Source: Candidatus Parcubacteria bacterium
Lineage (GTDB): Bacteria > Patescibacteriota > Minisyncoccia > Phycocordibacterales > PALSA-1337
Direction: 5' to 3'
Assembly: GCA_963766795.1 (NCBI GenBank)
Contig: CAVYBN010000007.1
Span: 54,389 to 118,388 of the forward strand
DNA length: 64,000 nucleotides
Shown: positions 14,815 through 18,032 of the stretch, in pieces
How the letters are laid out: each line of letters begins with the position of its first letter
How positions within the stretch are numbered: position 1 is the stretch's first letter
The notes under the pieces: model-generated
Databases searched by the model: none
Told to the model about the DNA's origin: nothing
The model's input: only the letters and a program-made list of their open reading frames with translations
Made by a program: the position numbers and the translations under genes

Positions 14815-14957
14815 TCTTTTTACCGCACCACGGGCAATGCCATTCTAGCTTCTTTGCCGGTGCGTCGCCGATCGTCCACCATTTATGGCAACGGGCGCAG
14901 GAAAAATGGTGGAGTGATTCGACGGAACGTTTTCCTTTTTTACTATTTTCCCGCGCC
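14798..14957 (-). CDS. Small zinc-ribbon protein (~53 aa, CxxC...CxxC). Its start overlaps the secA stop.
   Basis: The track ORF 14798..15073 is out of frame with secA over its first 38 codons. The internal ATG at 14955-14957 gives MARENSKKGKRSVESLHHFSCARCHKWWTIGDAPAKKLEWHCPWCGKKNVYRK. Confidence 0.35.
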
Positions 14958-17900
14958 ATGGCACTTCTTGTATTTCTTGCCGCTGCCGCACGGACACGGG
15001 TCATTCCGTCCCGGTTCTTTATTGGTCGGCTGAATCTTGCCGGATCCATCTCCTGAAGTGATGAATTGCGCATCTTCTTGCACTCCTTTTAATGTGTTTT
15101 GGATTTCGGATTTTGGATTTGTTTGGAAATTAGGATTTTGAATTTTGGATTTGTTTGGTTCTTGGTTATTGGTTCTTGGTTCTTGTGGTCGACTATTGAT
15201 TGGAATGATGTTTGGAAGGATCCTCACGAACTGCCCTTGCATAGCCGCCAACATCTCGCGGTATAGGCGCAGACCCTCTTTTTTGTATTCGACTAGAGGA
15301 TCACGCTGGCCGTAAGCGCGCAGGTTGACGCTCGAACGCGTGTAATCCATGACTTCTAGGTGCTCGACCCAGAACATGTCGATGGTCTGGAGGAGCACGA
15401 TGCGCACGGCAGACAGGAATGCTTCGCGGCCAAATTCGGTGATCTTTTTGTTAACAATTGCTTTGGCTTCGGACACGAGAGCTTCCTCGGAGCCTGTTTG
15501 GCCAGCATTTAAGGTTTTGCCATTACGATCAGATCCACCGCCGCCGCTATCGTTGTCATTCCCGTGTAAACGGGAATCCAGTGTCTTTCCACTAGATTCA
15601 ATCGTTTCACCCTGGATTCCCGCTTTCGCGGGAATGACAGCACCACTAACTCCGACCATTTGATCCAACTCATCCTCGACATCGTCAAGCGAACCTAATA
15701 GCAATCTCCGGCGACGCGCGTAGATCGTCGAGCGCTGGTGATTGATGACATCGTCGAATTCGAGAACGTGCTTCCTGGCGTCGAAATTGAAGCCCTCGAT
15801 CTTCTCCTGTGCGGCTTCGAGCGACTTGGAGATCAGCTTGTGCTCGATCGGCTCGTCTTCCGCCATGCCGAGCTTGCCCATCATGGACTTGAGCATGTCC
15901 GAAGCGAAGACGCGCATCAGATTGTCTTCGAGCGAAACGAAGAACTGCGTCTCGCCGGGATCGCCCTGACGGCCAGAACGGCCGCGCAATTGATTGTCGA
16001 TGCGACGGGCTTCGTGGCGTTCGGTGCCGAGAACAAACAAACCGCCGGCTTTTTTGACCTCTTCGTAAGTATCCGGAGTATTCGGTGCTCCGCCCAACTT
16101 GACGTCGACACCGCGGCCAGCCATGTTGGTGGCAATGGTGACGGCGCCCTTCTTGCCGGCTTGAGCGACAGTCTCGCCTTCACGCTCGGCGTATTCCGGC
16201 TTGGCGTTCAGGATGGTGTGAGGTATGCCTTCGGAACGCAGGAATTGCGAGAGGAGCTCGTTCTTCTCGATCGAGACGGTGCCGATCAGCACCGGCCTGC
16301 CGGCCGTGTGGAGCTCCTTGACCTTGCGGGCGATGGCCTTGAATTTGCCGGCTTCGGTGCGGAAGATCTGGTCGTTCGAGTCCTTGCGGATGACCGGGAC
16401 GTTGGTCGGCACGGCGTGGACGTCGAGGCCGTAGACCTTGAAGAATTCCTCGGCGGAAGTGGCGGCCGTGCCGGTCATGCCGGAGAGCTTGGGATACATG
16501 CGGAAGAAATTCTGGTAGGTGACGGTGGCGTAAGTGCGCGATTCCTGCTGGATCTTGACGCCTTCCTTGGCTTCGATGGCCTGATGCAGGCCTTCCGACC
16601 AGCGGCGGCCGGGCTGGAGCCTGCCGGTGAATTCATCCACGATGACGACCTCGTCCCCTTTGACGACGTATTCCTTGTTCAAATGATAGAGCGCCTTGGC
16701 CTTGACCGCGGTCTCGAGATGATGGACGGACTTGATGCCGGCGTCGGTGTAGATGTTCTCGATACCGAGCGCCTTCTCGGCTTTGGTGATGCCGTTTTCC
16801 GTGAGCGAGATGGCGCGGCGCTTCTCGTCAATGGTGTAATCTCCAGTTTTGCCTTCAGGATTCTTTCCGCCGTCGGTCGTATCTTCGGTGAAGCCGGACA
16901 CCAATAAAGCGAATTGTTTGTAAGTGGCTTCGGCGTCGCGGGTGGGCGCGGAAATTATCAAAGGTGTCCTGGCTTCGTCGATCAAGATGGAATCGATCTC
17001 GTCAACGATGGCGTAATTGAAGTCGCGCTGGCGCAAACGGTCCGGCGAATATTCGAGGTTGTCGCGCAGGTAGTCGAAGCCGAACTCGACGTTGGTGCCA
17101 TAAGTGATGTCGGCGGCATAGGCTTCGCGGCGGCTGCACGGGCGCAGGAATTCATGCACGACCTTGAAGGCGCCGAGCTGGTCGCGCTCCTTATCGAGAG
17201 GGTCAGTCGCAGGAGCTGGGAGCTTGGAGCTAGGAGCTGGGAGATCGTCCGGCACATCGTTCCCATTAACATTGTCACTATCATTGCTTGTCTCTTTGTC
17301 ATTCCCGCGAAAGCGGGAATCCAGTGTCTTTCCGCTAGACTTAATCGTTTCACCCTGGATTCCCGCTTTCGCGGGAATGACAGACACATCAGCTTCCTTA
17401 TTCTTATGCTTCGGATCATACATAAATGACGCCTCGTGATTGATGACCGCCACGGAAAGCCCAAGCGCGTCGTAGATCTGTCCCATCCACACGGCGTCGC
17501 GGCGTGACAAATAATCATTGACAGTGACAATGTGGACTCCTTTGCCGCTCAATGCATTTAAATATGCCGGCAAGGTGGCTACCAATGTCTTTCCTTCGCC
17601 GGTCTTCATCTCGGCGATAGCGCCTGAATTCAAAACCATGCCGCCGATCAATTGCACGTCGAAATGGCGCTGGCCGAGCGTGTGCCGCGCTGCTTCGCGG
17701 ACCAGAGCGAAAGCTTCGGGCAAGATCTCGTCGAGGATCTTCTTCTCTTCAGTTCGATCAAGCTTTGCAGAGTGTGTAGGGTGTAGGGTGTAGGGTGTAG
17801 TCTGCGATCCAGTTTTGACTTTTGAATTTTGACTTTTGACTTCCTCTGTACCCTGTCCCCTGTACCCTGTACCCTGCAATCTTTCTCTAAATTCAACAGT

Positions 17901-18032
17901 CTTCTGCTTGATCTCCGCATCAGAAAGCGCCTTGATCTGCTCTTCAAGGCTGTTCACCTTCGGCACCGTCGGCTCGAATTTCTTCACGCCGCTGGTATGC
18001 TGTCCGCCCGTCAATTTGCTTAAAAACGACAT
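14943..18032 (-). CDS. secA: Preprotein translocase ATPase SecA (1029 aa as called), carrying five in-frame repeat-derived insertions
   Basis: DEAD-like motor motifs, a C-terminal Zn-binding CPCGSGKKYKKCHG and conserved blocks (GEGKTLVATLPAYLNAL, DEVDSILIDEARTPLIIS). Inserted peptides are KVKTGSQTTPYTLHPTHSAK, ...LPAPSSKLPAPATDP, VIPAKAGIQGETIKSSGKTLDSRFRGNDK, VIPAKAGIQGETIESSGKTLDSRLHGNDN and NQEPNKSKIQNPNFQTNPKSEIQN. Confidence 0.95.
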   Translation of the reverse strand: MSFLSKLTGGQHTSGVKKFEPTVPKVNSLEEQIKALSDAEIKQKTVEFRERLQGTGYRGQGTEEVKSQNSKVKTGSQTTPYTLHPTHSAKLDRTEEKKILDEILPEAFALVREAARHTLGQRHFDVQLIGGMVLNSGAIAEMKTGEGKTLVATLPAYLNALSGKGVHIVTVNDYLSRRDAVWMGQIYDALGLSVAVINHEASFMYDPKHKNKEADVSVIPAKAGIQGETIKSSGKTLDSRFRGNDKETSNDSDNVNGNDVPDDLPAPSSKLPAPATDPLDKERDQLGAFKVVHEFLRPCSRREAYAADITYGTNVEFGFDYLRDNLEYSPDRLRQRDFNYAIVDEIDSILIDEARTPLIISAPTRDAEATYKQFALLVSGFTEDTTDGGKNPEGKTGDYTIDEKRRAISLTENGITKAEKALGIENIYTDAGIKSVHHLETAVKAKALYHLNKEYVVKGDEVVIVDEFTGRLQPGRRWSEGLHQAIEAKEGVKIQQESRTYATVTYQNFFRMYPKLSGMTGTAATSAEEFFKVYGLDVHAVPTNVPVIRKDSNDQIFRTEAGKFKAIARKVKELHTAGRPVLIGTVSIEKNELLSQFLRSEGIPHTILNAKPEYAEREGETVAQAGKKGAVTIATNMAGRGVDVKLGGAPNTPDTYEEVKKAGGLFVLGTERHEARRIDNQLRGRSGRQGDPGETQFFVSLEDNLMRVFASDMLKSMMGKLGMAEDEPIEHKLISKSLEAAQEKIEGFNFDARKHVLEFDDVINHQRSTIYARRRRLLLGSLDDVEDELDQMVGVSGAVIPAKAGIQGETIESSGKTLDSRLHGNDNDSGGGGSDRNGKTLNAGQTGSEEALVSEAKAIVNKKITEFGREAFLSAVRIVLLQTIDMFWVEHLEVMDYTRSSVNLRAYGQRDPLVEYKKEGLRLYREMLAAMQGQFVRILPNIIPINSRPQEPRTNNQEPNKSKIQNPNFQTNPKSEIQNTLKGVQEDAQFITSGDGSGKIQPTNKEPGRNDPCPCGSGKKYKKCHGAGK
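15555..15638. repeat. Family-A palindromic element, in frame in secA (the C-terminal-region copy)
   Basis: gtcattcccgtgtaaacgggaatccag ... ctggattcccgctttcgcgggaatgac. Confidence 0.9.
17298..17381. repeat. Family-A palindromic element, in frame in secA (the N-terminal-half copy). It is preceded at 17205-17245 by the agctgggagct-type repeat.
   Basis: gtcattcccgcgaaagcgggaatccag ... ctggattcccgctttcgcgggaatgac (perfect arms). Confidence 0.9.
17773..17878. repeat. Palindromic microsatellite-armed element ((gtgtagg)n ... (cctgtac)n), in frame near the secA N-terminus
   Basis: gtgtagggtgtagggtgtagggtgtag ... ctgtaccctgtcccctgtaccctgtaccctgca. The arms are reverse complements of each other. Confidence 0.75.

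Follow-up and report, generated by a model that had tools for sequence, protein, structure and literature searches.

Repeat-derived in-frame inserts at four sites of secA in a Candidatus Parcubacteria bacterium

How does the gene for an essential motor protein come to hold five segments of repeated DNA, and what becomes of them in the protein? The question arises at secA of a Candidatus Parcubacteria bacterium, encoded on the reverse strand of a 64-kb stretch of contig CAVYBN010000007.1 (hereafter the window; all positions are numbered on this whole stretch). An initial annotation described five independent in-frame insertions that together add about 130 amino acids (aa) to an otherwise canonical SecA. 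The segments belong to two kinds of repeat, a 91-nt palindromic unit (Family A) and arrays of 7-nt units, and they lie at four sites, S1 to S4, that are reused among relatives of the protein. In our judgement, a functional secA has probably been colonised by short, non-autonomous palindromic repeats that were filtered by selection and are translated as disordered loops.

Inserts in an intact secA gene

The gene and the segments within it are listed from the N- to the C-terminus of the product; tandem arrays were located with Tandem Repeats Finder (TRF).

secA, 14943..18032, (-) strand: intact coding sequence of 1029 aa, recognised from Pfam and structure matches, motifs and the dN/dS ratio
S1 insert, 17774..17876, (-) strand: aa 53-87, three 7-nt arrays forming a hairpin, N-terminal part of NBD1
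S2, part 1, 17293..17383, (-) strand: aa 217-247, Family A copy, translation SVIPAKAGIQGETIKSSGKTLDSRFRGNDKE
S2, extra residues, 17244..17292, (-) strand: aa 248-263, ETSNDSDNVNGNDVPD, no recognisable repeat, absent in insert-free relatives
S2, part 2, 17212..17243, (-) strand: aa 264-274, LPAPSSKLPAP, single 7-nt array (GGAGCTG)4.6 (TRF)
S3 insert, 15550..15640, (-) strand: aa 798-828, second Family A copy, translation AVIPAKAGIQGETIESSGKTLDSRLHGNDND
S3, trailing extra residues, 15483..15549, (-) strand: aa 829-850, SGGGGSDRNGKTLNAGQTGSEE, no recognisable repeat, absent in insert-free relatives
S4 insert, 15087..15185, (-) strand: aa 950-982, two 7-nt arrays in the C-terminal linker (TRF)

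All five segments were found where the initial annotation had placed them, and all are read through: the two Family A copies, the GTGTAGG/CTGTACC array, the agctgggagct-type array and the C-terminal repeat (TRF and a repeat finder). Matches to the secA arrays are expected by chance only 0.00-0.03 times, as judged from dinucleotide-preserving shuffles. The five segments occupy four sites, and their recognisable repeats amount to ~141 aa, close to the earlier figure. The real excess is larger, at 169-196 aa over the insert-free relatives P0004 (860 aa), P0008 (838 aa) and P0011 (833 aa), because S2 and S3 hold extra residues without a recognisable repeat.

Apart from the inserts, the product is a canonical SecA, as the initial annotation had proposed. 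Five Pfam SecA domains are matched (SecA_DEAD, SecA_PP_bind, P-loop_SecA, SecA_SW and SEC-C), and solved SecA structures match over the full length at E ~1e-220. The preprotein cross-linking, scaffold, wing and zinc-binding SEC-C parts are present (matches to PF01043, PF07516 and PF02810). The Walker A motif GEGKT stands at aa 145, DEID at aa 344, TGTA at aa 520, motif V (TNMAGRGVD) at aa 635, motif VI (RGRSGRQGD) at aa 683 and the zinc motif CPCGSGKKYKKCHG at aa 1013; no ATPase, helicase or zinc motif is broken by any insert. Over 751 core codons, comparison with the sister sequence P0002 gives nonsynonymous and synonymous divergences (dN and dS) of 0.04 and 0.70, a ratio of ~0.06, and the core is thus under strong purifying selection. 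We considered the possibility of a pseudogene, which insertions inside catalytic motifs would have implied, and rejected it, since all motifs are intact and the core dN/dS is so low.

The S1 insert combines (GTGTAGG)3.9, (TTTTGAC)4.3 and (CTGTACC)4.4 (TRF positions 17774-17800, 17813-17842 and 17846-17876), which on the mRNA strand read (GGGTACA)n-(AAAGTCA)n-(CCCTACA)n. It follows the residue equivalent to E. coli L54. For this and the other site mappings we used the 901-aa E. coli SecA sequence, the offsets of which agree with PDB chain coordinates. The segment is missing from P0004, P0008 and P0011, and at the same codon position the relative P0007 carries a related GGGTAxA...CCCTxxA hairpin. 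The predicted fold of S1 is stronger on the + strand (-41.6 kcal/mol) than on the mRNA strand (-34.3 kcal/mol). Near-perfect pairing of the region 17765-17885, with G-U pairs included, is seen only on the + strand, antisense to secA; on the mRNA strand there are two A-C mismatches per 7-nt unit.

S2 also lies in NBD1, between E. coli I156 and A165, where ~34 extra residues are already present throughout the clade. In the alignment gap of S2 the T. maritima chain has ~33 residues (165-197) and Thermus almost none. The Family A copy here consists of a hairpin resembling the dRS3 element of Neisseria, a 30-nt spacer and an inverted dRS3-like hairpin. The S3 copy, at the tip of a helical wing domain of much reduced size, is 92% identical to it and has the same orientation and frame; it too is missing from P0004, P0008 and P0011. 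The residues trailing the S3 copy may be left over from an earlier insert.

S4 lies in the C-terminal linker, upstream of the zinc motif, and consists of (TTTTGGA)8.4 and (TTGGTTC)4.4, or (GAACCAA)4.4 and (AAATCCA/G)8.4 on the mRNA strand. Its 3' part is common to the query and P0002 and has diverged in place. Because they are partly shared, the S4 arrays are older and predate the split between the two sequences, so that the independence claimed for the insertions is not supported for S4.

The inserted peptides are hydrophilic, with a grand average of hydropathy (GRAVY) of -0.8 to -1.9 against -0.44 for the core. In an AlphaFold2 model, the four insert regions are coil with a predicted local distance difference test score (pLDDT) below 50; since the model as a whole is weak (mean pLDDT 62, predicted template modelling score 0.44), these low values are soft evidence for disorder. 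S1 to S4 are putative surface loops or linkers, to judge from the predicted fold and from their match to length-variable loops of relatives and of solved SecA proteins. The initial annotation regarded the gene as a natural experiment on permissive positions, and the mapping supports this view by placing all four sites where SecA is naturally variable. A 46-aa insert peptide gave no protein database match at E<=0.001, the query being short for a search of 5.8 billion sequences.

Family A and 7-nt arrays across the window

Family A units are 91 nt long and read TGTCATYCCCGCGAAAGCGGGRATCCAGGGT - spacer - ACACTGGATTCCCGCTTTCGCGGGAATGACAA in an alignment of ten copies. Each end forms an 8-bp stem with a four-base loop, and the terminal inverted repeats measure 27 nt. 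Stem pairing is complete (100%) in all 20 half-sites, with two-sided changes at four of the eight pairs and one-sided changes at none, a pattern that fits a constraint on the DNA palindrome itself. Half-site variants of the types ATCCCC...GGGGAT and ACCCCC...GGGGGT depart from the strict dRS3 consensus and keep the pairing.

The window holds 11 Family A copies. Eight of the nine full copies lie as isolated units inside long open reading frames (ORFs), namely secA (twice), murB, gatB, a GT4 glycosyltransferase gene, the gene of an ATP-grasp protein, a 472-aa ORF and a 1932-aa ORF. The full in-gene copies outside secA are at 8872-8962, 9975-10065, 12045-12132, 18944-19037, 48239-48329 and 57409-57496, and two of them concern neighbours of secA:

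Family A in murB, 18944..19037, (-) strand: in the same frame, TVIPAKAGIQGQTAEIESSDTLDSRMRGNDN
Family A in gatB, 12045..12132, (+) strand: orientation and frame relative to the gene as in the other copies

The presence of the element in so many genes means that secA is not a special case and that the phenomenon is genome-wide.

The eight full in-gene copies share a single orientation and a single frame with respect to their hosts, which lie on both strands, and encode the peptide VIPAKAGIQ...LDSRxRGND. Spacer lengths are 27, 30 or 33 nt, that is, they change in steps of three only. Four of the six combinations of orientation and frame are stop-free, and the one in use is the most hydrophilic (GRAVY -0.73). 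With equal odds for the four combinations, seven further copies would all agree with the first with a probability of (1/4)^7, or ~6e-5. Such uniformity is the pattern expected of selection on the translated product, and it argues against removal at the RNA level. Rfam, applied to the whole window at gathering thresholds, found no family, intron or riboswitch match; in the region 14900-19450 at E<=1, it returned only chance-level microRNA-type matches, on the intergenic hairpin 19279-19405.

Two further observations concern the distribution and edges of the element. Three copies have, a few bases upstream, a short partial duplicate of the element's first 11-13 nt (TGTCATTCCCGC; 8852-8880, 12025-12050 and 51669-51700), and the protein there reads 'VIPA...VIPAKAGIQ'. 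The region 19900-47200, with glycosyltransferase, methyltransferase, ABC exporter and Wzy-like genes, holds no Family A copy, against eleven in its flanks.

Tandem repeats of the window are dominated by 7-nt arrays, usually of 4-5 copies and with a wide variety of units. Both coding and intergenic DNA contain them, in clusters of two or three and often as imperfect inverted pairs; examples are found at 7591-7697, 8808-8845, 9929-9969, 10083-10147, 11973-12006, 46039-46150, 59095-59125 and 61315-61346. A period of 7 inside coding regions is unexpected. The GTGTAGG/CTGTACC array, which the initial annotation listed as a microsatellite, is present as described and is unique to secA within the window. 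The GGATTTC type of S4 recurs at 7595, 7639 and 10096-10147, in two other ORFs, and a second GGAGCTG-type array lies at 46054-46073, inside a glycosyltransferase gene. Elsewhere in the clade, P0002 carries a two-armed version of the GGAGCTG array at S3, and a GxGYR...PYTLNP-type hairpin occupies S1 in certain relatives and S2 in others. The arrays may move as units, or else grow in place.

Some arrays stand next to Family A. In two genes (8790-8975 and 11955-12145), a Family A copy has an (AAGAGAT)n array 27-39 nt to its left, and a (GATTGAA)n array similarly adjoins a third copy (9915-10160). This adjacency suggests either composite units or preferred insertion beside arrays. Long intergenic hairpins of -20 to -42 kcal/mol, whose arms consist of tandem 7- or 8-nt units, are placed like terminators at 19270-19410, 23225-23420, 48495-48625, 50845-50945 and 60530-60650; the relative locus L205 has a similar (TAGGGAC)n hairpin between murB and secA (9888-9986). 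The 1932-aa ORF (3216-9014, (-) strand) has no Pfam match and contains several 7-nt arrays and one Family A copy, together with internal direct repeats of up to 300 nt, spaced 850-3600 nt start-to-start and 73-95% identical. It may encode a large surface protein.

Variable sites among related SecA proteins

The closest database relatives of the query are SecA proteins of Patescibacteria (the candidate phyla radiation, CPR), with the source names Minisyncoccia, Paceibacterota, Taylorbacteria and Parcubacteria. The 120 best SecA hits were aligned, and five variable sites were set apart from the core. Outside these sites the length is nearly constant, with a median of 749 aa. At least 15 extra residues are present at S1 in 60, at S2 in 62 and at S3 in 69 of the 120 relatives, and nearly all vary at S4. 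With 278 aa in variable sites, the query has the heaviest load; the median is 138 and the second-highest value 240. The load that the initial annotation called extreme is indeed the highest in the set, but with about half of the relatives expanded at each of S1 to S3, the query is the top of a continuum rather than a separate class.

What fills the variable sites differs by lineage and looks repeat-derived, and DNA from three loci confirms this. The P0007 locus has a 97-nt element in S2 and S3 of secA, in murB and in gatB; a different element, also of 97 nt, lies at S2 and S3 of the P0009 locus; and the P0002 locus has hairpins of other 7-nt arrays, and a further palindrome, as its inserts. 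Carriers of Family A at S2 are the query, P0010 and the clade of P0013 and P0032. Because lineages without Family A separate these carriers on the core tree, at least three independent gains of the element at S2 appear to have taken place. Between the query and P0002 the core is 94.7% identical, the contents of S1 to S3 are unrelated, and S4 is partly shared; the unrelated contents in such similar cores indicate that insert turnover, within boundaries that stay nearly fixed, is fast relative to protein divergence. In a search of metagenome contigs for secA loci of the same lineage, the best match is only 66-69% identical.

The neighbours of secA are murB, a NUDIX hydrolase gene, obg and gatB, and this gene order is kept in related contigs. 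On the contig of P0007 (L122), a Y1 transposase gene (15209-15847; PF01797, HIH motif) adjoins obg, ~2 kb from secA, and is a candidate for the enzyme that mobilises the palindromic repeats of that genome. On one contig that carries the P0002 gene (L120), ~1.4 kb of additional sequence upstream includes an rve-integrase gene, and the NUDIX and obg genes are shorter than on a second such contig (L121).

Origin of the inserts and known parallels

We propose that the two kinds of repeat, the 91-nt dRS3-type doublet of Family A and the hairpins or arrays of 7-nt units, are abundant throughout the genome, and that, the genome being densely coding, many of their insertions land inside genes. Selection would retain those insertions that add a multiple of three bases, are stop-free in their orientation and frame, and encode a hydrophilic, flexible peptide in loops or linkers that SecA can spare; the survivors would be translated as disordered loops. 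The repeats would have arrived by transposition or recombination rather than by local growth, and would persist as neutral passengers rather than as useful additions.

Several points weigh against this colonisation by mobile repeats. Pfam scans of ~41 ORFs found no transposase or recombinase gene in the 64-kb window, so that mobility is deduced from the distribution of copies alone, and the Y1_Tnp protein of a relative (tblastn) has no match in the window. The aligned flanks of Family A copies show no clear target-site duplication, and no empty site was found that is close enough to define the insert junctions at base resolution. Slippage could have expanded the 7-nt arrays where they stand, and the uniform orientation could reflect directional insertion linked to transcription instead of selection on the peptide. 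Parts of the conserved SecA core also have a pLDDT below 50 in the AlphaFold2 model. Finally, the inserts of the query are known from assembled sequence alone, and the assembly is not error-free, because gatB (11356-12997) is split by an apparent +1 frameshift near 11655 (an extra G in CTTGGTC), with the first 100 aa in one frame and the remainder in the next. Either an error of sequencing or assembly or a genuine disruption of this essential gene could account for the frameshift.

One alternative concerns how far the 7-nt arrays share the origin of Family A. It is possible, although we consider it doubtful, that only Family A was inserted and that the arrays of S1, S4 and S2 (GGAGCTG) grew locally by replication slippage or hairpin-templated repair. 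Their tandem structure, their many different units, the lack of a second GTGTAGG/CTGTACC array in the window, the divergence in place of the S4 arrays partly shared with P0002, and their clustering in twos and threes and beside Family A copies would all be accommodated by such growth. Yet unrelated genes have array types in common (GGATTTC is shared by three ORFs, GGAGCT by two), the GxGYR...PYTLNP hairpin sits at S1 or S2 depending on the relative, which suggests movement, and a period of 7 is not what selection for a protein repeat would produce, a slippage step of one unit breaking the frame. A related question is whether the inserts were kept because they serve SecA, as lineage-specific flexible spacers or interaction loops maintained by selection. 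Expansion of the same four sites in about half of 120 relatives, the single orientation and frame of all in-gene Family A copies, and persistence next to a core under strong purifying selection speak for a use of this kind. We nevertheless regard it as unlikely: even sisters whose cores are 94.7% identical have unrelated insert sequences, the close relatives P0004, P0008 and P0011 have no inserts, the same element occurs in such unrelated enzymes as murB, gatB, a glycosyltransferase and an ATP-grasp protein, and what is conserved is a DNA hairpin with compensatory changes rather than a peptide motif specific to SecA.

Two further alternatives would remove the inserts from the biology of the protein altogether. 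An origin as repeat-induced chimeras or mis-joins in a metagenome-assembled contig could be suspected, since the exact query SecA is on record on a single 157.8-kb contig and the nearby gatB has the 1-nt frameshift. Chimeras are very improbable here, as all five segments keep the reading frame without stop codons, each of them measures ~30-100 nt and so falls below a typical read length, and secA is colinear with relatives on both sides of each insert. Analogous inserts are moreover found in many independent assemblies: the P0002 gene with its inserts is base-for-base identical in contigs from two samples with different flanks (L120 and L121), and the exact P0032 protein, Family A included, is recorded on 9 contigs. 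The segments might instead be lost on the way to the mature protein, acting as introns, inteins or translational bypass elements. In favour of this, the elements fold into strong hairpins, and CPR bacteria are known to have insertions within their rRNA genes. Excision from the RNA, however, requires neither a length divisible by three nor a stop-free sequence nor a single frame, all of which are seen (in eight of eight Family A copies); Rfam found no intron or other RNA family in the window, Pfam no intein or other extra domain in SecA, and segments of 30-100 nt are far below the size of introns and inteins. We consider such removal highly unlikely.

Beyond colonisation filtered by selection, we tentatively put forward a rather doubtful reading, namely that the clade carries fast-turnover palindromic mini-elements that recolonise the same few loops of essential proteins through a targeting mechanism. 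They would comprise units bounded by a pan-bacterial dRS3-type hairpin and, as a second and previously undescribed class, hairpins built from 7-nt arrays. The reuse of fixed boundaries by unrelated elements and the single orientation would then point to targeting rather than to selection alone. Insertion might take place into existing palindromes or by their replacement, or through a process linked to transcription, with resident hairpins serving as landing pads.

The secA inserts find their closest known parallel in the Rickettsia palindromic elements (RPEs). PMC10969869 describes RPEs as palindromic, ~150 bp long and inserted in frame in many housekeeping genes (Ogata et al. 2000, 2002), where they are thought to sit at positions that leave the fold and function of the protein undisturbed. 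RPEs and Family A are both short multi-copy palindromes that lie in frame in unrelated genes, encode a conserved peptide and belong to a reduced genome. The elements described here differ in their patescibacterial host, their length of ~91-103 nt, their dRS3-type ends, the stacking of several elements in one gene and their rapid replacement at fixed sites; the likeness drawn here is one of description. We know of no RPE counterpart to the class built from 7-nt tandem arrays.

The ends of Family A connect it to a second group of repeats. The dRS3 consensus is ATTCCC-N8-GGGAAT, a 20-bp inverted repeat ATTCCCNNNNNNNNGGGAAT (Bentley et al. 2007, PMC1797815), and the Family A termini fit it exactly (ATTCCCGCGAAAGCGGGAAT, present in most half-sites). 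Neisseria intergenic mosaic elements (NIMEs) often form long arrays beside surface-protein genes, with RS elements of 19-214 bp (PMC1797815). Family A resembles them in having two inverted dRS3-like hairpins around a spacer of 27-33 nt, and differs in that its units are isolated and lie inside genes, in the coding frame, rather than between genes. A gonococcal sequence printed in a paper, upstream of pilE, reads GTCATTCCCGCGAAAGCGGGAATCTAG...CTGGATTCCCACTTTCGTGGGAATGAC and has nearly the termini of Family A around a longer spacer. The neisserial phage recombinase with dRS3 as its target was not found in the window. Among the matches listed, the exact 26-nt half-site TCATYCCCGCGAAAGCGGGRATCCAG occurs in genomes of many phyla (loci L001-L119), with cultured Sphingopyxis, Bradyrhizobium, Lysobacter and Pseudomonas and a Rickettsia endosymbiont (L038) as carriers. 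Within these listed matches, several proteobacterial loci and the Rickettsia endosymbiont have the same 27-nt termini around lineage-specific spacers, and the half-sites lie mostly at ORF ends or in short ORFs, in all frames.

Other classes of mobile repeat share part of this architecture. Repetitive extragenic palindromic sequences (REPs) and their doublets (REPINs) are extragenic by definition, and the gene of the REP-associated tyrosine transposase (RAYT) is usually flanked by REPs. The doublets are reported to be mobilised by RAYT (Y1) transposases (Bertels and Rainey 2011; Nunvar et al. 2010). Family A is REPIN-like as an inverted doublet of a short GC-rich hairpin with a short spacer, ~90-100 nt long and with many copies per genome; unlike REPINs it is not extragenic, and neither a Y1 transposase gene (by tblastn and Pfam scans of ~41 ORFs) nor a flanking REP-RAYT arrangement was found in the window. 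In its 27-nt terminal inverted repeats, its length of 91 nt and its lack of transposase coding capacity it resembles a MITE (a miniature transposable element with inverted repeats); no parent insertion sequence for it was found in the window. Cyanobacterial short tandemly repeated repetitive (STRR) heptamers are 7-nt tandem arrays scattered through the genome and described as intergenic. The arrays of the query lie in genes, in the coding frame, and often as paired imperfect inverted arms, and are likened to STRR sequences by description only. A literature search found no paper linking CPR or Patescibacteria with palindromic elements, REP, REPIN or MITE; among the peptide motifs, AKAGIQ and AFAGMT gave no matches and the matches to RGND were irrelevant.

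SecA proteins of other bacteria tolerate extra residues at the same places. T. maritima has an insertion in NBD1, Thermus in NBD2, and E. coli a variable region and a large wing domain, the size of the wing domain varying greatly. In contrast to the query, where the inserts are repeat DNA that differs even between sisters, these insertions are stable and lineage-wide.

These findings extend the phenomenon of selfish DNA in coding genes from Rickettsia to Patescibacteria, a very large and poorly studied bacterial group, and the ends of the repeat are the dRS3 hairpin known from Neisseria and found in many phyla among the matches listed. For SecA, they provide a natural map of four sites that accept 30-60 extra residues, backed by 120 relatives and useful for tagging and engineering. 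They also serve as a warning that repeats can be the source of protein length and of low-complexity segments in CPR proteomes. The uniform frame and orientation, together with the rapid replacement, allow one to ask whether selection or the insertion mechanism shapes coding repeats, and offer a lead to a possibly targeted, fast-turnover repeat system.

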